DNA from: an uncultured Candidatus Saccharibacteria bacterium
Lineage (GTDB): Bacteria > Patescibacteriota > Minisyncoccia > Phycocordibacterales > EsbW-18
DNA: 64,000 nt
Direction of reading: 5' to 3'
Assembly (NCBI GenBank): GCA_964478705.1
Contig: CAYZIR010000003.1
Coordinates: 17,223-81,222, forward strand
Shown here: in pieces, positions 598 through 57,974 of the stretch
Numbering within the stretch: position 1 is the stretch's first letter
Layout: each line of letters begins with the position of its first letter
Program-made: the position numbers and the translations under genes
The notes under the pieces: model-generated
The model's input: only the letters and a program-made list of their open reading frames with translations
Told to the model about the DNA's origin: nothing
Databases searched by the model: none

Positions 598-1374
598 TTA
601 GATTGAAAGCTCAACTCCATGGGCAACGGCGCTCTGTTTGATCAATTCGCCGAATTGTCTTGGGCTACAGCCCGCTCCAAGCAAACCGAACGCCCATCGA
701 AAAGGATGCGAGGACTCCTCGAAGAGTCGATCAATGTCAGCCTTGCTAAAAAGCTTGAGTGGCAAGCTTGTCTCTTTTCGTCCAACTTCGAGGTCGAAAC
801 AAATGCCGAGCTGATCGTTGACCAAGCATTCGAACTGTACGATCTTCGATTTGTGCGGAGGGAGAGACTGCCAGACCTTGAAGATCGACTCTCTGTCGAG
901 AGACACAACCGTAATTTCAGTCCCTCCCACGACAGCTGGGAAAGAACCCCTGCAGTTGTGATCGAGGATGAGGACAAAACAGCTCGCATGACGGTAGCCG
1001 AGATGATCCCCCTTCAAGAGCTCAGCGAGATTACTCGGAAGACCTTCCGAAAGCCCACGATCCGCGAGCATGCGAGGACTTTCTTCACCTGTCGCATGGA
1101 AGCGAGCCCATTCTTTCGACTCGATGTCGTACGTCGTGCGAGTGACATGGTTGCTGTCATACAAACTGTGCTGGCATGTGCCACACAGAGCGACGCCGCA
1201 CGCGAGTCCTCCCATTTGGTCATCGCAGGATCGCACAGCTTTGTCTTTGCACGACGCACACAAGAGCTTTTCGTGCTGAGAGCACCACCCGTTGTCAGTC
1301 GGCTTTTTGCATGGGCTATAACCTTTCGCATTGAACTGGCAAGGGACTGACTCGGGCATCTGGACATCGGCCAT
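598..1374 (-). CDS. Hypothetical protein with N-terminal Cys-rich (zinc-finger-like) domain
   Basis: 258-aa ORF with 9 Cys in the first 67 aa (CxxC-like pairs), in a locally GC-richer stretch. A 243-aa ORF on the opposite strand (619..1350) fully overlaps it, so strand choice is uncertain. Confidence 0.4.
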   Translation of the reverse strand: MADVQMPESVPCQFNAKGYSPCKKPTDNGWCSQHEKLLCASCKDKAVRSCDDQMGGLACGVALCGTCQHSLYDSNHVTRTTYDIESKEWARFHATGEESPRMLADRGLSEGLPSNLAELLKGDHLGYRHASCFVLILDHNCRGSFPAVVGGTEITVVSLDRESIFKVWQSLPPHKSKIVQFECLVNDQLGICFDLEVGRKETSLPLKLFSKADIDRLFEESSHPFRWAFGLLGAGCSPRQFGELIKQSAVAHGVELSI

Positions 1375-2336: not shown

Positions 2337-3302
2337 ATGATGACACCACGACAAACAACAAAAGAAACAAGTGGTGTCATCGCCTCCCCCATATCCCACG
2401 ATGAGGCACTTGCTGACATCGCGCACGGACTCCAAACGCCTATAGCAGCTCTGATAGCGCATCTTGAAATTCTCGCCAAAAAAAGGCCACGAACCCGTGA
2501 AATAAAAATATGTTCCGCCATCGCCCATGATATGGGAGACATGGTTCGTGACTTGGTTCGCCTTGCACGAGCAGATACCACTGTTCGCACGAGCGTTCGT
2601 GAAATCATTGATATAGGCGCATTGGTGCGTTCGTTGGTTGAGTATGTAGAGGTGCTGGCACGAGCGCAAGGTATTGCACTCCACGTTGATATCGCTGAAG
2701 GTATATTAGTCTGTGGTGCACGAAAACAAATTGAAGATGTGATATTGAATCTCATCGGCAACAGTATCAAGTATATGGATCCAGCGTTACGCGGGAAAAA
2801 CATGATCAAAATAATGATTGCTCACGACGATTCGTATTGCCGAATTATCATCAAAGACAACGGAATTGGAATTGATGCAAACGAATTGCCCCATGTCTTC
2901 ACGCGCTTCTATAGAACGCGAGCCGGCAGTAAACAAGCGACAGGATCAGGACTTGGTCTTGCAATAACAAAAAAGACCATCGAAGCTCACGATGGATCAA
3001 TCGAAATTAAAAGTGCGTCCGGTATTGGCACCTGTGTATTTTGTTCCTTTCCGCTTTTTGCGCCTCGCTTACCCCTTTCGAAGTGTGTCGCTCACCACAG
3101 TACCATCCTCGAGCTCAATGATACGGTCTGCAAAGACAGCGTATTCGGGTTCATGGGTCACCATAACAATCGTTTGCCCGTTGCGCTTGTGAAGATCCTG
3201 CATAACGTTGATGACGCTCTCTCCGGATACACTATCAAGATTCGCCGTTGGTTCGTCAGCGAAAAGTATATCTGGCGATTCAGCAATCGCACGGGCGATT
3301 GA
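2337..3302 (+). CDS. Sensor histidine kinase (HisKA + HATPase_c only; no TM or sensor domain)
   Basis: H-box HDEALADIAHGLQTPIAAL, N box and G2 box GSGLGLAI. The ORF continues about 80 aa past the usual HATPase end and overlaps the convergent ABC ATPase gene by 234 nt. Confidence 0.75.
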   Translation: MMTPRQTTKETSGVIASPISHDEALADIAHGLQTPIAALIAHLEILAKKRPRTREIKICSAIAHDMGDMVRDLVRLARADTTVRTSVREIIDIGALVRSLVEYVEVLARAQGIALHVDIAEGILVCGARKQIEDVILNLIGNSIKYMDPALRGKNMIKIMIAHDDSYCRIIIKDNGIGIDANELPHVFTRFYRTRAGSKQATGSGLGLAITKKTIEAHDGSIEIKSASGIGTCVFCSFPLFAPRLPLSKCVAHHSTILELNDTVCKDSVFGFMGHHNNRLPVALVKILHNVDDALSGYTIKIRRWFVSEKYIWRFSNRTGD

Positions 3303-3761
3303 TACACGCTGCTGTTCACCGCCAGACAACTGGCTTGGATGATTCGCATGGCGGTGTGCAAGACCAACTGCATCAAGCGCTTTAATCGATTTTTGAACCG
3401 CTTCTTCACGCGATAGCCCGTCCATCATAAGCGGTATTGCCACGTTATCAACCGCAGTGAGCTCCGGTAGGAGCGCATAGTCTTGAAAAATATAGCCCAA
3501 ACGTTTCAAACGAAATGTGGTGCGTTCGCTTTCTGTAAATTGCTCAGTATCGATGCCGTCAAGAATCACTTTACCTGTCGTCGGCTCATCGAGGAGACTC
3601 ATCTGATACATCAACGTTGATTTGCCCGCACCGGACTTCCCCATAATCGCAACAAATTGGCCTTTTGGAATTTCAAGCGTAATGCCACGAAGCACCCGCG
3701 TGATGACATCACCCTTACCGTAATTTTTTGTGAGGTTTTCTACTTTGATCATACGGTTCAT
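3069..3761 (-). CDS. ABC transporter ATP-binding protein (MacB/LolD/FtsE-like)
   Basis: Walker A GKSGAGKST, ABC signature LSGGEQQR, Walker B ILFADEPT. Confidence 0.9.
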   Translation of the reverse strand: MNRMIKVENLTKNYGKGDVITRVLRGITLEIPKGQFVAIMGKSGAGKSTLMYQMSLLDEPTTGKVILDGIDTEQFTESERTTFRLKRLGYIFQDYALLPELTAVDNVAIPLMMDGLSREEAVQKSIKALDAVGLAHRHANHPSQLSGGEQQRVSIARAIAESPDILFADEPTANLDSVSGESVINVMQDLHKRNGQTIVMVTHEPEYAVFADRIIELEDGTVVSDTLRKG

Positions 3762-11436: not shown

Positions 11437-11511
11437 ACCTGACAGTGTAACAAATATCTGTATCGCTCTGTAAAAAATTTTATTTCACGACACTCGTAAT
11501 GCAACCATCAT

Positions 11512-12069
11512 TTACAATGCGCGTGCTGTAAGTCCGATAATGGCAATACCGATGAAGTTAAAGATGAATGAAAGAGTAACAAACCACGAAGCACGAATAC
11601 GAGCGAGACCCAGCAAACTGACGCCAAGTTCGTCCGGTAGTGGCGACGCGATAACAAATCCACCCGCAAGAAATGTAATGAATCGAACAAGCCTTGAGCG
11701 CATCAAATGTCGTGCCCGTTTCCACATATTTTGATGATGCACAAGTTCCACCAAATGGCTTGAGAGTTTGTCTTTAACAAACATAAATATCACCAAATCC
11801 CCAATGACAGCACCGAGTGCACCGAGGAGTGCTGTGAGCCACACACTCTGAGCTTGCGCAATTTCACCAAGCGTCACGATTGCGGGCGCCGTGGTAAATA
11901 CTGTCGTAAAAAACATCCCCGCGATGAAGCTTCCGATGAGTTCAAGCTCTTGTGTCGATGTGAGAATACGAACAAGTATATCTGTCTTTACCAAGATAAG
12001 AGCAATGATTATTGAAAGGACAATAATCCCGACATCGTGAAGTATGAGCGCTGCCTCGTTCTGTTTCAT
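11512..12069 (-). CDS. Hypothetical integral membrane protein
   Basis: Five or six predicted TM segments; no recognised motif. Confidence 0.5.
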   Translation of the reverse strand: MKQNEAALILHDVGIIVLSIIIALILVKTDILVRILTSTQELELIGSFIAGMFFTTVFTTAPAIVTLGEIAQAQSVWLTALLGALGAVIGDLVIFMFVKDKLSSHLVELVHHQNMWKRARHLMRSRLVRFITFLAGGFVIASPLPDELGVSLLGLARIRASWFVTLSFIFNFIGIAIIGLTARAL

Positions 12070-16976: not shown

Positions 16977-17106
16977 TACCGTGAGCCTCTCCACAATCCG
17001 GAGAGGCTTTTTCGTACCTATCACCACACACGACTTCACATCATAGCCATCAAACTCTAACAGAGAAACGCTGGAAGCCCTTCGCCGAAGGCTATACTAT
17101 GGGGTT

Positions 17107-17748
17107 ATGGAACATCATCGAAAAAGCTTTTGGGAACAAGCCGGCGGAGCATCCGACTATAACGCTGAATGGAAAGAAAAAATCACCGGATACCTAAAGA
17201 AAATCTTGAAGCGAGAAGGTATCGAAATAGGTAGTGTCATTATAGATCTCGGTTCCGGCAAAAGACCTGTCTCTGAACACATCGCGCCTCCCGACAGCAA
17301 AGTTATCTATGTCGATTTTAACGCACCAGAAAAAGATCATGCGCACAATCAGCATGTGCACATCCAACGAGACATACACACTCTACTCGACGACGACTCT
17401 TTTTCTGCAAAACGAAGTTCGGTGGAGGTAGCCAAGTTTCTCGATGTAGCTCCTCGAAGTGACGACAGAGAGCGTGTAGATACCGTTATCATTTCGGATA
17501 TTTTAAATTACGTACCCTCAGAAAAAACCTTAGGAAAAATTCATACGTATCTAAAGCCAAACGGCATCGTAATTATCTTAAATCAACCTGGAAGAACGTT
17601 TGATTATGCTTCTCACACATTGAGCCCCGAGGGAGCTTCAAATAATAAAAATCTGAAGTCGTTCCTCACCGACACATTGGGAATGTCTCCTCTCTATGAA
17701 GAAACAACAAAAGAGGACTACTTCATTGGCGTCTACCAAAAACAATAG
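17107..17748 (+). CDS. Class I SAM-dependent methyltransferase
   Basis: Motif I IIDLGSGKRP, motif II/post I …VIYVDFN…, motif III PNGIVII. Confidence 0.7.
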   Translation: MEHHRKSFWEQAGGASDYNAEWKEKITGYLKKILKREGIEIGSVIIDLGSGKRPVSEHIAPPDSKVIYVDFNAPEKDHAHNQHVHIQRDIHTLLDDDSFSAKRSSVEVAKFLDVAPRSDDRERVDTVIISDILNYVPSEKTLGKIHTYLKPNGIVIILNQPGRTFDYASHTLSPEGASNNKNLKSFLTDTLGMSPLYEETTKEDYFIGVYQKQ

Positions 17749-21835: not shown

Positions 21836-22001
21836 CTCACTCGCTTCGCTCTCTAAGAACCCTCGGTTCTCAGCGGGCTTCGCCCTGCTCTCCAACACGG
21901 GAGAACACGTGTTCTCCCGACCCCACTCCTGTTCGAATCCAAGTCCGCGCTCAAACAGAAGTCACATTTCTGATACCGGACGGTATCAGAAATATCACTT
22001 G
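21836..22001 (-). mobile_element. Repeat family copy B: ~166-nt structured insert between a degenerate duplicate of the tRNA-Gln 3' end and the tRNA-Gln gene
   Basis: Core 21853..21893 is the reverse complement of 10688..10728 (41/41). Palindromes gggagaacac/gtgttctccc (21898..21917) and ttctgatacc/ggtatcagaa (21969..21992). Inverted tRNA 3' fragment gttcgaatccaagtccg at 21931..21947. Flank 21817..21836 ttgttgccggactaggaatc versus tRNA end 21999..22018 ttgttgccggacttggattc. Confidence 0.55.
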
Positions 22002-22072
22002 TTGCCGGACTTGGATTCGAACCAAGATACCCTCCTCCAAAGGGAGGTGTCCTACCATTAGACGATCCGGCA
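22002..22072 (-). tRNA. tRNA-Gln (anticodon TTG)
   Basis: Reverse complement TGCCGGATCGTCTAATGGTAGGACACCTCCCTTTGGAGGAGGGTATCTTGGTTCGAATCCAAGTCCGGCAA. 7-bp acceptor stem, anticodon loop CTTTGGA, T-loop TTCGAAT. Confidence 0.9.
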
Positions 22073-22201
22073 TTGTTCAATTGTCCTACCATTAGACCTG
22101 TCTAGCTGGCGCTAGCCAAGGCTGATCCGCCTCGGCTCGCTTCGCTTACCGAAGCGAGACGGGCGATCCGGCAGAATACAGGGACACTATACCCTGCGAC
22201 C

Positions 22202-32079: not shown

Positions 32080-32694
32080 CTAAGTCTGATTGAACACCCA
32101 GCAACTATCTGCTGGCCACTGACGGTTCTCAGAGCTATAAGAAATACTGAGCCATCGGTCGTCAGAGTCTCGTTCGACTCGAAAGATTTCTCTTCCACCG
32201 CTGGCAATAAGGAGAGACTCCCCCTTTTTCTGCTCGGCGTAGTCCAAACGAAGTGTAAGAGCAACTCTGTCTTCAACACCAACTAAACCGAGTCGCCATG
32301 CCCCGTGATAAATGTCACGCAGTACGGCGCCGTGAGAAAATCCAAGTTGTGCAAGCGTTACCGCAACAAGATCAAAATGAGTCTCACGCTGGTCGAACCA
32401 TTGTGCCCTTTTCTGCTCAACAAAGTGTTTAGCACGAAGACTAGTCCTATACCCTGAGCGTTCGACTTCCGCAAGAAGGCGAGTCAGACTTCCATCCCCC
32501 TCCGCAAGAGTGACCTTTCTCAAGATTGGGAACATCACTCTCCTTGGAAAACGCCCCTCTATGGCATCTTGAAGATGGAGTTTCAGAGCTTCCAGACTAT
32601 AGGGATAGCCCCTTGCCTGACGAAGCTGACGCTCGATCTCAAACAACTGCCCAAACAATCTTTCCTTGAGCTCGCCTGCGACCATGGTGGCCAT
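32080..32694 (-). CDS. Hypothetical protein (GC-richer gene)
   Basis: ORF-track 32080..32808. The Met at 32694 (MATMVAGELK…) avoids a 35-nt overlap with the parB end. No motif recognised. Confidence 0.45.
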   Translation of the reverse strand: MATMVAGELKERLFGQLFEIERQLRQARGYPYSLEALKLHLQDAIEGRFPRRVMFPILRKVTLAEGDGSLTRLLAEVERSGYRTSLRAKHFVEQKRAQWFDQRETHFDLVAVTLAQLGFSHGAVLRDIYHGAWRLGLVGVEDRVALTLRLDYAEQKKGESLLIASGGREIFRVERDSDDRWLSISYSSENRQWPADSCWVFNQT

Positions 32695-32773
32695 GACGAC
32701 CTTTCTCTTTTTTTGCGGCCGAAATTGACCGCTCCTGAATTGGACTATACATTTAAAAACAGTGGGAGTCAAA

Positions 32774-33736
32774 CTACACGCTAAAATTCGAAACCGCGTA
32801 GAGGTCATCGTCGGAGTCTTTCGTCGTTGGAGTGTGTGATTGCTCCGCTATATTTATCGGAGGTGTATCCGGCGTAGGTGGTGGAGGGGTCTCAACAGCC
32901 TGTGCTGGCGTTTCTTTTGCGTTCAAGAGTAGGAGAATTTTTTTGATGTCGTCCGGTGAAAAATAGTCAATCATGATGCGACCACCAAGACCGGTTGGTT
33001 CGACACGAACGCGTGTGCCAAGCGCCTCCGACACTTCATTTTCGAGTGCGACAATATCAGGATCGTACATCCTGTCTTTCTTGCGAACTTTTTCGACAGC
33101 AATACGTCGCGAAATTTGCTCGGCATCGCGCACGGTGATTTTCTTCAAGAGAATCTCTTTGAAGAGTGTCATCTGCTCTTCGGGTCTGTTCGCGAGCATC
33201 AACAGTGGGCGAGTGTGACCTTCGGTGATTTTTCCTTCACCGAGCGCTTGGAGTATCTCAGGTGAAAGAAGGAGAAGACGAATGGTGTTTGAAACATATT
33301 CACGACTCTTCCCCACTTTCGAGGCGATTTGACCGTGCGACAACTTAAATGTGTCGGCGAGCTGTTTGAACGCGTGGGCGCGCTCAACAGGACTAATGTC
33401 TTCGCGCTGGAGGTTTTCGATAATCGCAAGCTCCAACTTTACTTGCTCATTTTGTTCATCATCGCGAATAATGACCGGAACCTGTGAGAGACCTGCCATC
33501 TTTGATGCACGCAGACGTCGCTCTCCTGCAATTAACTCGTACTGTACAGAGAGACCGCCGGTGTCTTTCATGCTCTCGCGTTGTGTAACCACGAGCGGTT
33601 GCAAGACACCGTACTGTCGGATTGAGTCGGAGAGGTCTTTCAATTTTTGCTCGTCGAAAAAGCGCCGTGGCTGGTACGGGTTTGGAACAATTTTTTCGAC
33701 TTCAACCCAAAAAATAGAATCTCCCTGAATTGCCAT
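32774..33736 (-). CDS. parB: Chromosome partitioning protein ParB (Spo0J)
   Basis: ParB box …VPNPYQPRRFFDE…LSDSIRQYGVLQPLVV… and HTH; 320 aa with Pro/Thr-rich C-tail. No adjacent parA. Confidence 0.88.
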   Translation of the reverse strand: MAIQGDSIFWVEVEKIVPNPYQPRRFFDEQKLKDLSDSIRQYGVLQPLVVTQRESMKDTGGLSVQYELIAGERRLRASKMAGLSQVPVIIRDDEQNEQVKLELAIIENLQREDISPVERAHAFKQLADTFKLSHGQIASKVGKSREYVSNTIRLLLLSPEILQALGEGKITEGHTRPLLMLANRPEEQMTLFKEILLKKITVRDAEQISRRIAVEKVRKKDRMYDPDIVALENEVSEALGTRVRVEPTGLGGRIMIDYFSPDDIKKILLLLNAKETPAQAVETPPPPTPDTPPINIAEQSHTPTTKDSDDDLYAVSNFSV

Positions 33737-33836
33737 ACGAAATTAACTTAGATGAAACTATTGTAACAGAGAGATAAGTATAAAAATACATTTATTGTTA
33801 CTTTGAGTCATCCTTGATATAGTGTTTTCAAAGACG

Positions 33837-33919
33837 CGCCGAGGTGGTGGAATAGCAGACACGCAGGACTCAAAATCCTGTGCTCGCAAGAGCGTGAGGG
33901 TGCAAGTCCCTCTCTCGGC
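33837..33919 (+). tRNA. tRNA-Leu (anticodon CAA), type II with long variable arm
   Basis: GCCGAGGTGGTGGAATAGCAGACACGCAGGACTCAAAATCCTGTGCTCGCAAGAGCGTGAGGGTGCAAGTCCCTCTCTCGGCA. Close match to canonical tRNA-Leu architecture. Confidence 0.88.
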
Positions 33920-33923
33920 ACAC

Positions 33924-34604
33924 ATGAAAAAACGGCTTCCTGATAAAGATTTTATATGGACGCCGTCTTTGGCATATGCAGTCGGACTCATTGTCACTGA
34001 CGGCAATCTTTCTTCGGACGGACGCCACATCATTATGCGTTCCAGTGAGAAACAACTCTTGGAAACGTACAAACATTGCTTACAACTTAGAAATATAAAG
34101 GTTGGCACATCCCGTTCAAGTGGTCACACCACTAAACTCTCGTATCGCGTGCAACATGGTGACGTGCGTTTGTATCGATGGTTGGAAAAAATAGGCATTA
34201 CCGCCCACAAAACACACACGATAGGAGCCATAGCAATCCCTGATGCAATGTTTTTGGATTTTCTTCGCGGCCATCTTGATGGTGATGGTTCAATCACAAC
34301 GTATACCGATCGTTGGAATACATTCAAAAACCCTAACTATGTGTATGAACGCTTGTGGCTCCGATTTCTTTCGGCAAGCGAAACGCATATGATATGGCTT
34401 CAAAAAAGAATAGAGAAAATTATGGGTGTAAAAGGACATCTTAATAAACGTACTCCCCGTGACTCAAGACATGTTCCGATGTACTCGCTGAAGTTTGGCA
34501 AAAAGGATTCACTTGTTCTCCTAAAGCACCTATATCCACATAAACGTGTTCCGTGTTTGAAGCGAAAGAGAAAAATTGCTGAACCATTTTTATCTCGAAT
34601 ATAA
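33924..34604 (+). CDS. LAGLIDADG homing endonuclease (two-motif, single-chain)
   Basis: Motif 1 LAYAVGLIVTDGNL and motif 2 FLDFLRGHLDGDGSI. ORF-track 33822..34604 starts inside the tRNA; the first ATG is 3 nt after the tRNA 3' end. Coordinates ±1 because of a read-register discrepancy here. Confidence 0.8.
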   Translation: MKKRLPDKDFIWTPSLAYAVGLIVTDGNLSSDGRHIIMRSSEKQLLETYKHCLQLRNIKVGTSRSSGHTTKLSYRVQHGDVRLYRWLEKIGITAHKTHTIGAIAIPDAMFLDFLRGHLDGDGSITTYTDRWNTFKNPNYVYERLWLRFLSASETHMIWLQKRIEKIMGVKGHLNKRTPRDSRHVPMYSLKFGKKDSLVLLKHLYPHKRVPCLKRKRKIAEPFLSRI

Positions 34605-34711
34605 AAACATCGCCATTGCTCTAACGGTAACGCCATAGGAAACCTCTGTGACTTTTTTGCACATCTGCTGTAGGATGCCTAAGGACAAACAACAACCGGA
34701 GAAATGTCTCT

Positions 34712-35308
34712 ATGGATATCATCCTTTCATCGCGAAATCCGAGCAAGGCGGAACAAATCAGAGCAGTCTTTGCAGATTCGGCGTTTAGGGTCATTTCGCT
34801 CTCTGAAGCAGGAATAGACGGAGAGGCAATCGAGGATGGTACGACGCTCGAACAAAACGCGTTCAAGAAGGCGCATTTTGCGTGGGAGCGAAGTAAGTCC
34901 TTGGTGATGGCTGACGACACTGGCTTTTTCATCACCGCTCTCGACGGCATTCCTGGAGTCAACGCCGCACGATGGGCAGGAGAAGAAGCGACCACGGAAG
35001 AGATAACGAGGCACACCCTCACACAACTCGAGGGTCACTCCAACCGGTCTGCATTCTTCGAAACGGTCGTGGTGGTCATCACCCCTGAGGGCGAGAAATA
35101 TTTCTTTAGTGGCAGGGTCTCTGGCCACATCCTCGAAGCGCCACGCACGAAAGCCCAGCCGAAGATGCCGTACAGTCCGATCTTCGTTCCTGAGGGGCAT
35201 GATCGCGTGTGGGCAGAAATGACTGTGGAAGAAGAGAATGCAATTTCTCACCGAGGGAAAGCGTTCCGAACGACTCGCAGATTTCTCGAATGGTTGTATC
35301 GTTCCTAG
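34712..35308 (+). CDS. rdgB: Non-canonical purine NTP pyrophosphatase (RdgB/HAM1/ITPase)
   Basis: …IILSSRNPSK…, …DDTGF… and …SHRGKA… HAM1-family motifs. Confidence 0.85.
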   Translation: MDIILSSRNPSKAEQIRAVFADSAFRVISLSEAGIDGEAIEDGTTLEQNAFKKAHFAWERSKSLVMADDTGFFITALDGIPGVNAARWAGEEATTEEITRHTLTQLEGHSNRSAFFETVVVVITPEGEKYFFSGRVSGHILEAPRTKAQPKMPYSPIFVPEGHDRVWAEMTVEEENAISHRGKAFRTTRRFLEWLYRS

Positions 35309-35385
35309 TTTTCACTTTTGTGCTGTCGCATTGTCCTGCGACAGCACTTGTTTTTTATACGCACTGCATAGCATTATGAATACCT

Positions 35386-36153
35386 ATGGTGTTTCCTCTA
35401 TCCGCCCTCTTACCGTATCTCGGAGCCAGCATTCTCGGAGTGTTCAACATGATCCTCTGGGGTCTGTATGGAGATCTCCTTGTTGAGAAATTCGGATTAA
35501 AGAAGGTATTCCGTTCTATTGTCTTTGCCTTGGTTGCAAGCATTTTTCTCTATGTTCTTGACCAAAACATTCCGCTTTTTCTTGTTGCTTTAGCATCGAT
35601 AGCGCTTGAACGACTCCTCACAGAATTCTACAAAGCGCTGTGGCGAAGCGAGGGTCAGGAGAAGTATGCGATTCCCTCTGATCTTAATATCACGCTTTCC
35701 CTTCCCCTTCGGCGCCTTCTTTTTGTTGCCCTTGTGATTCTTGTAGCACTTTTGATTCTCAACGTGCCTCTTCCTACATCAGGACTTCTTTTGGGAATTG
35801 TTGCTGGGTGTATAACTGCAATCGGTGGAACCCTGAAAGATGCTCCTCACGAAGGATTTCGCTTAATAAAGTTTTTTAGAAGTCCTGTGATTGCGGTTGT
35901 AATCGGTCTGCTCCTCGCTTCCTTTTTCCCTCAGAGCAACGGAATGATGTTACTTCTTGCCATATTCGGCGGCGAGCGAATCGTTTCTGAATTCTATAAA
36001 AAGATATTGATGGGAAGAGTTCCAGGGAAATTTAAAGAAACACTTCCTAAAAATCAATTCTGGTCGCAACATAGAAAGTGGCTTTTGTTTGTGTACGTTG
36101 CGAACATCGTGTTACTCGTCGTACTCCTATTCATTGACATCTCTTTGAAATAA
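35386..36153 (+). CDS. Hypothetical integral membrane protein
   Basis: Six or more TM helices; no motif recognised. Confidence 0.55.
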   Translation: MVFPLSALLPYLGASILGVFNMILWGLYGDLLVEKFGLKKVFRSIVFALVASIFLYVLDQNIPLFLVALASIALERLLTEFYKALWRSEGQEKYAIPSDLNITLSLPLRRLLFVALVILVALLILNVPLPTSGLLLGIVAGCITAIGGTLKDAPHEGFRLIKFFRSPVIAVVIGLLLASFFPQSNGMMLLLAIFGGERIVSEFYKKILMGRVPGKFKETLPKNQFWSQHRKWLLFVYVANIVLLVVLLFIDISLK

Positions 36154-36194
36154 TTTTAATATCACATCAGATATACATTCGAAAGGGAGACTTT

Positions 36195-36551
36195 GTGTCC
36201 AATCCTCAGCGAAGTTGGCTTCAACTCGAGCTTGATAAGCCTTGGGGCAAGAGGCTTGATGGGCTTCCCCACAGTAAAGGGCATGGATGCCCCGAATGTG
36301 GTCATGGAGGTATGTTCATCCCGTCTAGTCATCAAAGAACAGGCGACCTTGTTGCCGGATTCACTCCGCATGGTGCACCGAAAGCTGCCTACAGAGATGA
36401 CGGGTCAGCACTCGTTCTTGAGTGCCCGCGTTGCTTTGAGTCGTGGTGGATTCACATCTCCGCAGAGCTTGTCATCAACATTGCACCCCATTGCAAGGAT
36501 TGGCCAGAAAGAAAGCGAGAAATAAGCGTCCACCCCGAGGAGGGTCCATGA
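36195..36551 (+). CDS. Hypothetical zinc-ribbon protein
   Basis: Two CxxC pairs (CPECGHGG …CPRCFESWW). The stop overlaps the next start (ATGA). Confidence 0.5.
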   Translation: MSNPQRSWLQLELDKPWGKRLDGLPHSKGHGCPECGHGGMFIPSSHQRTGDLVAGFTPHGAPKAAYRDDGSALVLECPRCFESWWIHISAELVINIAPHCKDWPERKREISVHPEEGP

Positions 36552-36847
36552 ATACCGCCCCAATACCAGGTCTTCTGTGGTTTGCTCTGATTATTCTCGA
36601 CACCGTCGTCTGGATCATGAAGTTTGTCTTTTTCATCCCCATGGAAATCAAACGGGTGATCAAAGACGAAAGTGCGCCTGCGCGGTGGGTTTCTATCCTC
36701 TCTGCAAGTCTGGGATTCATCGGAGTCGCCGTCACAATTTCGGCCTGGTTCTTTGGATGGTATTGGCCATGCTACGGCATCGCACTCGTCTTCTACCTCC
36801 TTGGTTTTTACATGGTGGTGGAGCGAGACAGATTGAGTAGTGACTGA
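36548..36847 (+). CDS. Small hypothetical membrane protein, translationally coupled to the zinc-ribbon gene
   Basis: MNTAPIPGLLWFALIILDTVVW… three TM. ORF-track 36443..36847 includes an unlikely basic N-extension. Confidence 0.5.
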   Translation: MNTAPIPGLLWFALIILDTVVWIMKFVFFIPMEIKRVIKDESAPARWVSILSASLGFIGVAVTISAWFFGWYWPCYGIALVFYLLGFYMVVERDRLSSD

Positions 36848-36900
36848 AAGAACGCCTGTTCCTCGAACCGACCTCCGATTCACTCGGAGGTCGTCATTGT

Positions 36901-37803
36901 ATGAAAAAGAAACAACAAAAAATCATCGCTATTATTGGTCCCACCGCAACGGGTAAAAGCGATCTTGCGGTCACACTTGCGAAGCGCCATTCGGGCGAGG
37001 TGATTTCTGCTGACTCGCGCCAGGTTTATGCAGGCCTCGATATCGGTTCGGGGAAAATCACGAAGCGTGAAATGAAAGGGGTTCCACATCACCTTCTTGA
37101 TGTCGCATCGCCAAAGAAACGATTCTCGGTCAGCGACTACGTGAAGCACGCGACAAAAGCGTTCGCGGATATTGAAGGGCGTAAAAAACTTCCGATTGTC
37201 GCTGGCGGCACCGGACTCTACGTTGATGGATTCTTAAACGGAATCATGTTCCCTGAAGTTCCGCCAAATCCCCTCCTTCGGAAAAAATTAGAAAAAAAGA
37301 CATTGGCGGAGCTCGCGCGGATGCTCAAAGCAAAAGACCCTTCACGATTCAAATCAATTGATACCAAGAACAAAGTGCGTTTGATTCGTGCTCTTGAGAT
37401 TGTTTCTGCACTCGGCAAGGTTCCAAAACAAAAAGCACAACCGCTCGATAGAGATATTCTTTGGATCGGACTCACCGACTCCACCAACACACTTACCCAA
37501 AGAATCAAAAAGCGTCTTCTTGCACGGTTAAAAAAAGGAATGGAGAGGGAAGTCAGAACGCTCAAAAAAAGTGGCGTCTCGTGGAAGCGCCTCGAGGATT
37601 TGGGACTTGAGTATCGCTACGTCGCCCACCGACTCCAGAAAAAAATTACCAAGAGGGAAATGATTGATGCAATTTTGAAGGAGTCTGTCGCCTACTCAAA
37701 ACGTCAGATGACGTGGTTCAAACGAAATCATAAGATTCACTGGTTTAAACCGAACGAAACAAAGAAGATTGAGAAACTCACAAAATCGTTTCTCACTCGT
37801 TAG
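36901..37803 (+). CDS. miaA: tRNA dimethylallyltransferase
   Basis: P-loop IIAIIGPTATGKS, …SADSRQVYAGLDIGSGK…. Confidence 0.92.
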   Translation: MKKKQQKIIAIIGPTATGKSDLAVTLAKRHSGEVISADSRQVYAGLDIGSGKITKREMKGVPHHLLDVASPKKRFSVSDYVKHATKAFADIEGRKKLPIVAGGTGLYVDGFLNGIMFPEVPPNPLLRKKLEKKTLAELARMLKAKDPSRFKSIDTKNKVRLIRALEIVSALGKVPKQKAQPLDRDILWIGLTDSTNTLTQRIKKRLLARLKKGMEREVRTLKKSGVSWKRLEDLGLEYRYVAHRLQKKITKREMIDAILKESVAYSKRQMTWFKRNHKIHWFKPNETKKIEKLTKSFLTR

Positions 37804-57454: not shown

Positions 57455-57455
57455 A

Positions 57456-57941
57456 TTAGTTGATTGCAAGGAGTTCGACGTCAAAGAGCAATGTCGCATT
57501 CGGTGGAATCAAACCACCACCCGCACCCGCAGCACCATAGCCCAACTCTGCCGGAATATTTAGACTTCGCTTCTCCCCTACCTGCATACCAAGCACACCC
57601 TGCTCCCAACCAGCAATCACACGATTTTCTCCCAACGTGAACACAAATGGAGTTCCTCGATCAACGCTTGAATCGAATTTTGTGCCATTCTCGAGTGTAC
57701 CCGTGTAGTGAACGGTCACCGTATCGCCGACTTCTGCTGCTGGCCCTGAGCCTTTCGTAACAATTTTAATACCCAATCCTGCTGCATTCATATTCCATTC
57801 TGATTCCATAGAGTCTTCTGTGGTTAGTGGTTCTGTAATTGGTGTATCCGTCGTCGTTTCGTTCCCCGGTAGAATGGCATATAAGCCATACCCGAGAATC
57901 GCAATGACAACAAGCGTAATCAATGCTGTTGATGTTTTCAT
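57456..57941 (-). CDS. FKBP-type peptidyl-prolyl cis-trans isomerase (secreted)
   Basis: Signal peptide plus …[18 protein letters not shown]…FTLG…VIAGWEQG…LLFDVELL. Confidence 0.9.
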
Positions 57942-57974
57942 ACAGACAGTATAGCAAATCGAAATAGAGGCCTT

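Follow-up and report, generated by a model that had tools for sequence, protein, structure and literature searches.

Homing endonuclease genes (HEGs) are thought to persist mainly by hiding harmlessly in self-splicing introns or inteins. The seg and mob genes of phage T4, among which SegB lies in a tRNA gene cluster, and F-CphI of cyanophage S-PM2 are free-standing homing endonucleases that undergo intronless homing. Both the free-standing endonuclease and intronless homing are established concepts (PMC3984707). Here we describe a HEG of the LAGLIDADG type that begins 3 nt after an intact tRNA-Leu(CAA) gene in a 64,000-nt stretch of DNA from an uncultured Candidatus Saccharibacteria bacterium (assembly GCA_964478705.1, contig CAYZIR010000003.1); the whole stretch is called the window below. 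On balance we favour the reading that it is a mobile, free-standing HEG living in the 3′ trailer of the tRNA, which would be co-transcribed from the tRNA promoter, translated from a near-leaderless mRNA, and spread by intronless homing together with a linked tRNA allele.

Like the T4 seg and mob genes and F-CphI, this HEG is a lone open reading frame (ORF) between genes, with HEG-less alleles in close relatives and a flanking marker, here the tRNA allele, that appears to travel along. Those enzymes are of the GIY-YIG or HNH type and are phage-encoded, whereas the present one is a LAGLIDADG enzyme on bacterial chromosomes, is tied to one tRNA species over hundreds of species, and lacks expression signals of its own. 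In the Candidate Phyla Radiation (CPR), LAGLIDADG enzymes are on record from insertions in rRNA genes, those of the LAGLIDADG_3 type being reported from 16S insertions only (PMC11270868), and a 2026 survey of Patescibacteria tRNA genes describes group I introns with HNH enzymes and no LAGLIDADG enzyme (PMC13011429). The CPR 16S proteins and the archaeal I-Tsp061I and I-DmoI share with our protein the Pfam family LAGLIDADG_3 and a monomeric two-domain fold; they lie inside rRNA introns or insertions and target rRNA genes, whereas the present gene has no intron and is tied to a tRNA.

Two further comparisons concern the layout of the locus. Sethuraman et al. in 2009 are said to have described, for rps3 of Ophiostoma, HEG insertions accompanied by a duplication of the host gene's 3′ end, and Paquin et al. 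in 1994 reportedly found a hybrid atp6 gene in Allomyces, in which a HEG insertion came with a duplicated host 3′ end; a functional host gene, a HEG and a displaced, non-functional 3′ fragment likewise follow one another in ~15–25% of the loci of our family. Here, by contrast, the host gene is a tRNA, its chromosome is bacterial, the remnants vary in length, and none is present in the window. PMC7902536 mentions a related case in which part of an exon is duplicated. The 5′ end of the HEG mRNA, which we propose to arise from tRNA 3′ processing, has parallels in mitochondrial tRNA punctuation and in the E. coli thrU–tufB operon. The bacterial tRNA–mRNA operons known to us keep a normal leader with a ribosome-binding site, whereas here the AUG lies 0–15 nt after the tRNA and the processing step is a proposal. 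In the literature searched we found no description of a tRNA-Leu-linked free-standing LAGLIDADG family, and the family is apparently undescribed. This kind of enzyme and its broad way of spreading are familiar; the tRNA-trailer address, the probable route of expression, the association with a tRNA allele and the extent over hundreds of species are not.

The protein was analysed using Pfam, AlphaFold2 and Foldseek. The 226-residue ORF matches Pfam LAGLIDADG_3 (E 1.3e-6) and passes the curated cutoff of that family. Among 25 aligned homologues, G21, L22, T25, D26 and G27 of the first LAGLIDADG motif and D119, G120, D121 and G122 of the second are invariant. The AlphaFold2 model derived from this alignment (pLDDT 90.5, pTM 0.87) consists of two alpha-beta-beta-alpha-beta-beta-alpha domains, with the elements in the order expected for LAGLIDADG enzymes. 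Foldseek placed I-Tsp061I at the top of the PDB matches (E 2.9e-11, TM 0.65–0.71), followed by E-DreI/I-DmoI, I-SceI and PI-SceI, all with a probability of 1.00, while domesticated WhiA and the bI3 maturase were found at lower scores. I-Tsp061I is also the sole significant PDB match by sequence (E 2e-4; ~18% identity). The description in an earlier note on this DNA of a complete two-motif enzyme is therefore borne out by the family match, by both aspartates and by the confident two-domain model, and its placing of the two motifs (residues 16–29 and 110–124) is correct.

No Hint (intein) domain, helix-turn-helix (HTH) or other added domain was found in the protein with Pfam. A search with Rfam gave no group I or group II intron in 33300..35200 at E ≤ 10, and none in 17 family loci (126 kb) at the gathering threshold; only tRNAs were matched. 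From sequence and model, the gene is judged to be a catalytically equipped, double-motif LAGLIDADG endonuclease gene of predicted activity, which we call free-standing because it has neither a Hint domain nor a group I or II intron; this agrees with the earlier claim that it lies outside any intron. An intron-borne endonuclease was rejected on the same search and on the intact tRNA 3 nt before the ATG, and an intein-associated one on the stand-alone length of 226 residues, the missing Hint domain, and the boundaries formed by the tRNA and the stop codon. The ratio of nonsynonymous to synonymous substitution rates (dN/dS) between the HEGs of the window and of its relative L001 (handles beginning with L denote loci) is 0.07, and four other close pairs give 0.07–0.14. 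Such values argue that the protein is functional, and fit a homing enzyme and a useful host gene alike.

We then consider the occurrence of the gene in other genomes. A protein search returned at least 819 homologues, of which the best 120 are 52–92% identical, approximately 224 residues long, and come from sources named Nealsonbacteria, Wildermuthbacteria and other Patescibacteria. A scan of one genome per GTDB species found homologous loci, confirmed by tblastn and 47–92% identical, in at least 562 species-level genomes. For the locus analysis 80 of the 562 loci were fetched; the search patterns demanded both catalytic motifs, so that the sample is biased towards intact copies. A tRNA-Leu(CAA) gene on the same strand immediately precedes the HEG in 79 of the 80 loci (78 identified by ARAGORN, together with L031, whose contig ends inside the upstream tRNA-Leu). 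The only locus without an upstream tRNA-Leu, L071, still has a tRNA-Leu 3′ fragment following its HEG. With one and the same tRNA before the homologue in 79 of 80 independent loci, the adjacency is far beyond chance. The gene, whose stand-alone setting beside a tRNA the earlier note had called unusual, is not an isolated oddity.

The neighbourhoods of these loci differ. In Parcubacteria-type genomes the genes are, in order, topA, relA/spoT, parB, parA, tRNA-Leu and HEG; Microgenomates-type loci have another set of neighbours, and metagenome-assembled genomes (MAGs) labelled Omnitrophota have a third, with tRNA-Ala(GGC). There are thus at least three unrelated neighbourhoods with variable downstream genes, in which tRNA-Leu(CAA) is the sole constant partner of the HEG, and among the 80 loci no family copy was seen in any other context. 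An independent ORF, a fixed intergenic address in 79 of the 80 loci, and HEG-less alleles in relatives (20 empty sites, described below) are what characterizes a free-standing HEG.

Family members linked to tRNA-Leu(CAA) are also found on long contigs from MAGs to which the submitters gave the labels Deltaproteobacteria, Omnitrophota, Planctomycetia or Gammaproteobacteria (L014, L054 on a 474-kb contig, L044, L061, L076, L078 on a 269-kb contig, L080, L023 and L029). If these labels are right, the tRNA-Leu-linked family crosses phylum boundaries. In two loci an unrelated ORF stands between tRNA-Leu(CAA) and the HEG (L027 2609..3980, ~450 residues; L066 282..1004, ~240 residues), and the slot after tRNA-Leu(CAA) therefore takes other insertions too. 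A search of IMG/VR gave no close homologue, only LAGLIDADG proteins that are 25–30% identical, and a phage origin was rejected on this basis.

We next consider sites that lack the gene. A ParB-seeded metagenome scan provided a sample independent of the HEG. It yielded 19 loci in which parB adjoins tRNA-Leu(CAA), none of which carries the HEG (0/19). Together with L166, a locus from the near-isogenic genome GCA_018061915.1, this makes 20 relatives, sampled independently of the HEG and with parB beside tRNA-Leu, of which not one has the gene. Downstream of the HEG stop codon, occupied L031 aligns with empty L108 at 83% identity, beginning at most ~8 nt from the L108 tRNA 3′ end; the insertion is thereby placed right at the 3′ end of tRNA-Leu. 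The two tRNA-Leu genes are only 75% identical.

The most telling comparison is that of three close relatives, the window, L001 and L166. The gene order is parB, tRNA-Leu, HEG, rdgB, ..., miaA, tRNA-Ser in the window; parB, tRNA-Leu, HEG, miaA in L001, which carries the HEG and whose MiaA is 88% identical; and parB, tRNA-Leu, rdgB, ..., miaA, tRNA-Ser, with no HEG, in L166, whose MiaA is 81% identical. Across all three, tRNA-Ser(GGA) is identical at 88 of 88 positions. The tRNA-Leu(CAA) of the window is identical to that of L001 (84/84) and matches that of HEG-less L166 at only 68 of 81 positions, with differences in every stem. By BLAST, homology between the window and L166 stops at ~33750 and resumes at ~34702, with flanks of 76–83% identity and just the tRNA (78.6%) aligning inside, so that the whole block of promoter, tRNA and HEG differs; the same block (33751..34701) is collinear with L001 at 84% identity.

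This pattern extends to other pairs. Where both loci are in the same state and the flanks are at least 78% identical, the tRNA-Leu genes are 98–100% identical in four of four pairs; in discordant pairs, one with and one without the HEG, they are 75–84% identical in three of three (Fisher p = 0.03 against the same-state pairs). Leaving the direction of change out of account, the presence of the HEG accompanies a different tRNA-Leu allele. When occupied and empty tRNAs are compared position by position for a signature of immunity or of the target, the differences in base frequency cluster in the variable arm and T stem, in samples that themselves differ phylogenetically.

Many occupied loci carry a 3′ fragment of tRNA-Leu(CAA) at or just after the HEG stop codon. 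The fragments always reach the tRNA 3′ end (...GGCAC) and start anywhere from approximately position 20 to position 70. Their score lies above all 154 control regions in 11 of the 80 loci and above the 95th percentile in ~20 of 80 (~15–25%). The anticodon loop (CTCAAAA) is the exact starting point of the fragment in L044 and L080, where the fragment also provides the last HEG codons together with the stop, and apparently in L016 and L023 too. A scan for the motif CTCAARA near stop codons had a background rate too high for use. The fragment is usually closer to another allele than to the intact tRNA upstream (rank 48–87 of 97), with the exception of L044, where 34 of 36 positions match the upstream tRNA. 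The layout of a working gene, a HEG and a displaced 3′ end argues that the cassette may enter by recombination within the tRNA gene.

The HEG itself appears to have no signals for expression. The spacer between the tRNA discriminator and the start codon has a median length of 7.5 nt in the family and is at most 15 nt in 55 of the 64 loci with CCA-less tRNAs; these spacers are AT-rich and have no Shine-Dalgarno sequence. In the window the tRNA likewise does not encode CCA, and its discriminator is A33920. Because the only promoter-like site on the plus strand in 33600..34800 is upstream of the tRNA, ending 14 nt before it, and no plus-strand terminator was found between tRNA-Leu and rdgB, the HEG is very probably co-transcribed with tRNA-Leu, as the earlier note had proposed. 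Homologous promoter positions in relatives are also upstream of tRNA-Leu.

The window as a whole has few ribosome-binding signals. Of 52 long ORFs, only ~6 have a Shine-Dalgarno core ahead of the first start codon, and 20 have a TANNNT box that ends 4–8 nt before the first ATG, against ~6 expected (for example 11511..12069, 17046..17748 and 57455..57974). The scarcity of Shine-Dalgarno cores and the excess of TANNNT boxes suggest that this genome relies mainly on leaderless mRNAs. HEGs that are separated from the tRNA have signals of their own: a −10 box 3–11 nt before the start in L012 (after a terminator), L011, L063 and L071, and a Shine-Dalgarno sequence in L023 and L078. Among separated HEGs, five of eight follow CCA-encoding tRNAs, compared with five of 67 others (p = 0.0007), a contrast that phylogeny confounds.

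The slot after the tRNA is also used by miaA. In the empty sites L089, L090, L097 and L099, miaA starts 1–6 nt after tRNA-Leu(CAA) to give a tight tRNA–miaA unit, and the slot is therefore a normal expression position that the HEG has taken over. The HEG stop codon overlaps or nearly touches the miaA start in L001, L064, L069 and L072, with an ATGA overlap in L001 (4678..4681) and L072. As tRNA-Leu(CAA) reads a UNN codon, it is expected to be a MiaA substrate.

Taken together, these observations can be accommodated by the following mechanism. Having no promoter or ribosome-binding site of its own, the HEG would be transcribed from the tRNA promoter as part of a tRNA–mRNA precursor. In Bacillus subtilis, RNase Z cuts CCA-less precursors right after the discriminator; a cut of this type at the CCA-less tRNA would free an mRNA whose AUG lies 0–15 nt from its 5′ end, and in the window would leave 5′-CACAUG.... 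The freed mRNA would be translated without a leader, in a host most of whose genes look leaderless; both the RNase Z step and leaderless translation are what we infer from the sequence. Where a tRNA-Leu(CAA) locus has no HEG, the enzyme would then cut it within or next to the tRNA gene, and recombinational repair from the occupied allele would copy the HEG together with the linked, presumably resistant, tRNA allele (intronless homing with co-conversion). Where the flanks are non-homologous, part of the resident tRNA gene would stay behind as a 3′ remnant after the HEG. We put forward more tentatively, and as rather less than probable, the wider proposal that this is an undescribed selfish lifestyle, in which a HEG in a tRNA trailer does without a promoter or ribosome-binding site, relies on tRNA processing to yield a leaderless mRNA, and replaces the resident tRNA-Leu(CAA) with its own resistant allele, amounting to a gene drive on tRNA alleles, across hundreds of Patescibacteria species and in other phyla.

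Several observations weigh against this mechanism. The 5′ boundaries of the fragments are heterogeneous (~20 to ~70) while the 5′ junction is fixed; an attempt to read the insertion or cleavage point from the remnant boundaries was dropped for this reason. The HEG of the window has no tRNA remnant, the score there being at background level. Two of the 20 HEG-less loci, L166 and L101, carry self-copies of the tRNA 3′ end beside a small structured insert, and tRNA 3′ duplications are therefore not exclusive to the HEG. The empty/empty pair L107/L108 (flanks 75%) is likewise divergent in tRNA-Leu (75%). In the same genome pairs, tRNA-Leu(CAA) and tRNA-Trp give 0.70 and 0.71, respectively, which also fails to support the idea that tRNA-Leu(CAA) evolves unusually fast everywhere; only particular pairs speak for that idea, for example L044/L080, whose tRNA-Ala genes are 97% and whose tRNA-Leu genes are 75% identical. 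Mantel-type comparisons of distance matrices, meant to separate horizontal from vertical inheritance, for the HEG against ParB, ParA, RelA, TopA and the tRNA gave near-zero correlations, which are uninformative because the housekeeping controls are weak too (ParB–ParA 0.37, ParB–RelA 0.13). Strong purifying selection, with no obvious pseudogenes in 80 loci, fits a host-beneficial gene as well. Finally, cleavage activity and a target site at the tRNA-Leu(CAA) locus are predictions.

The alternative that survives best is a domesticated LAGLIDADG protein, a long-standing host gene that would have descended vertically in one operon with tRNA-Leu(CAA), with many losses along the way, and that might serve, for example, as a DNA- or RNA-binding factor in the expression of tRNA-Leu or miaA, or as a nuclease in defence or recombination. 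The low dN/dS and the intact appearance of nearly all 80 copies speak for it, as do an amino-acid identity of 47–60% across deep lineages, similar to that of ParB, and the presence of WhiA and bI3 maturase among the fold matches. Between the window and L001 the HEG is 84% and the flanks 80–87% identical at the nucleotide level, which indicates vertical co-inheritance at that scale. However, domesticated proteins of the WhiA type lose their catalytic Asp residues, whereas D26 and D121 are invariant here, and no HTH or other domain has been added. The distribution is sporadic rather than uniform, the gene being absent from all 20 relatives with the same locus, and its presence tracks a swapped tRNA-Leu allele beside an unchanged tRNA-Ser. 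Domestication also sits poorly with the foreign tRNA-Leu fragments behind 15–25% of the HEGs, and with a tRNA linkage that stays the same where the neighbourhoods are unrelated and in MAGs carrying the labels Omnitrophota and Deltaproteobacteria. Given the invariant aspartates, the empty sites and the swapped allele, we consider domestication, which the earlier note had raised, to be the weaker reading and unlikely.

A further alternative retains a selfish HEG and places its target elsewhere, in an rRNA or protein-coding gene, or supposes that it no longer homes, so that the trailer would be a harmless, well-expressed parking place reached by ordinary recombination. Its nearest characterized relatives (I-Tsp061I, I-DmoI and the CPR LAGLIDADG_3 proteins) are indeed enzymes of rRNA introns or insertions, and no target can be inferred at the tRNA locus. 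Other ORFs use the same slot, as miaA does in the empty sites and the unrelated ORFs do in L027 and L066; a mere parking place, however, would not come down to a single tRNA species in 79 of 80 loci whose neighbourhoods and phylum labels differ, with no family copy in any other context among the 80. The tRNA-Leu remnants and allele swaps point instead to recombination centred on the tRNA gene, and this alternative strikes us as distinctly improbable. Least probable by far is the suggestion in the earlier note that the gene is left over from a tRNA or rRNA group I intron whose ribozyme has decayed: such introns are common in Patescibacteria tRNA and rRNA genes (PMC13011429, PMC11270868) and the fragments that start at the anticodon loop in four loci do so at the classical tRNA-intron position, but the gene keeps a fixed address in a family of at least 562 genomes with no ribozyme remains, the Rfam searches described above were empty, the intact tRNA ends 0–15 nt before the ATG and the remnant often abuts or overlaps the stop codon, so that there is no room for a ribozyme core, and the Patescibacteria survey lists HNH rather than LAGLIDADG enzymes and no intron in tRNA-Leu(CAA) (PMC13011429).

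The features of the locus are collected in Table 1. ARAGORN, Rfam and the sequence agree on an intact tRNA-Leu(CAA) followed after 3 nt by the HEG, and the Rfam score of the tRNA is 51 bits against a gathering score of 29. The span given in the earlier note ends correctly at 34604, but the tRNA begins at 33838 and not at 33837; the same note placed the HEG upstream of parB and rdgB, which is right for rdgB, downstream on the same strand, and not for parB, which is divergent on the opposite strand. The open frame that it described, running from inside the tRNA through the enzyme, is present (GTG 33822..34604, 260 residues) and is best regarded as an artefact, because conservation among homologues begins at M1 of the 226-residue form and the distance from tRNA to ATG changes between homologues by lengths that do not keep the frame. 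The same spurious N-terminus of translated tRNA stands in the database gene calls of the homologues P0001, P0003, P0004, P0071 and P0105; members of the family are mostly labelled hypothetical protein, and gene callers often extend their ORFs through the tRNA. No rRNA gene was found within the window.

Table 1. Coordinates of the tRNA-Leu(CAA)–HEG locus and of the small elements at tRNA ends (positions are those of the window unless a locus is named).
Feature	Position	Strand	Details
parB	32774..33736	minus	divergent from tRNA-Leu
Block not aligning with HEG-less L166	33751..34701	plus	promoter region, tRNA-Leu allele, HEG and 97 nt trailing
Sigma-70-type promoter-like site	33795..33823	plus	TTGTTA, 17-nt spacer, TG-extended TATAGT; consensus match only, putative function
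tRNA-Leu(CAA)	33838..33920	plus	type II, long variable arm; ARAGORN and Rfam
Spacer CAC	33921..33923	plus	3 nt from discriminator to ATG; too short for a Shine-Dalgarno sequence or promoter
LAGLIDADG HEG	33924..34604	plus	free-standing, double-motif; 226 residues and stop; Pfam LAGLIDADG_3
LAGLIDADG motif 1, LAYAVGLIVTDGNL	33969..34010	plus	residues 16–29; putative catalytic Asp26 at 33999..34001
LAGLIDADG motif 2, FLDFLRGHLDGDGSI	34251..34295	plus	residues 110–124; putative catalytic Asp121 at 34284..34286
Intergenic region, HEG stop to rdgB	34605..34711	plus	no terminator-like site and no detectable tRNA 3′ remnant
rdgB/Ham1	34712..35308	plus	downstream of HEG
Small-insert-like site	~21950..21896	minus	after tRNA-Gln; inverted copy of its own 3′ end and GAGTGGGGTCGGGAG
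Small insert, L166	4026..4176		
Small insert, L101	~3050..2900	minus	
Small insert, L102	~1240..920	minus	after tRNA-Trp
Small insert, L095	~3462..3441		

The tRNA-Leu(CAA) of the window has two unusual loops. Its T-loop (33896..33902) reads TGCAAGT, with G at position 55 in place of the near-universal U, and in its D-loop (~33851..33856) AG replaces GG at positions 18–19. Together the two changes have the look of a covarying 18:55 tertiary pair. They are found jointly in L033 as well and, to judge by the translated N-terminal extension of P0004, upstream of that homologue.

Two differences in gene content surround the locus. Compared with L001, the window has an extra 2.3-kb block (34608..36916) between the HEG and miaA, containing rdgB, a 255-residue membrane protein and small ORFs; the block is present in L166, and L001 therefore probably lost it. 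Between relA/spoT and parB, the window also has an extra ORF of 242 residues (32080..32808), with no Pfam match, that is absent from both L001 and L166.

Small elements were seen at the 3′ ends of tRNA genes. They are GC-rich, strongly folding inserts of ~125–150 nt just after the tRNA (fold z-score −4.8 in L166), which open with the complement of the last ~12–20 nt of the tRNA and close by repeating those ~20 nt in direct orientation. Common to the copies is a core of GGGGTCGAG, a hairpin, and then AACTCGTGACC. No Rfam family matched the insert. It could be a mini-element with tRNA 3′ ends as its target, a scar that a lost cassette left behind, or a minihelix RNA resembling a tRNA. The possibility that the 126-nt insert after the L166 tRNA is a decayed HEG was rejected, as it has no similarity to the HEG and matches the small elements after other tRNAs. 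Near the similar site in the window, a partial copy of the tRNA-Gln D-arm, GGTCTAATGGTAGGACA, lies at ~22084..22100 on the minus strand, ~10 nt upstream of tRNA-Gln (22001..22072), and may be the 5′ fragment of a former tRNA-Gln copy.

The family suggests a third niche in which a HEG may do no harm, beside introns and inteins: the discarded trailer of a tRNA precursor, where maturation of the host tRNA would both protect the tRNA and make a translatable mRNA. If this is true, it would provide a natural and widespread case of tRNA-punctuated leaderless gene expression in bacteria, and a mechanism for the horizontal replacement of tRNA genes in genome-reduced, uncultured bacteria. It would also add hundreds of compact (~225 residues), monomeric meganucleases, whose targets may be tRNA-gene sequences and which would be of interest for enzyme engineering, and would call for correction of genome annotations in which these ORFs are extended through the tRNA or labelled as hypothetical proteins.

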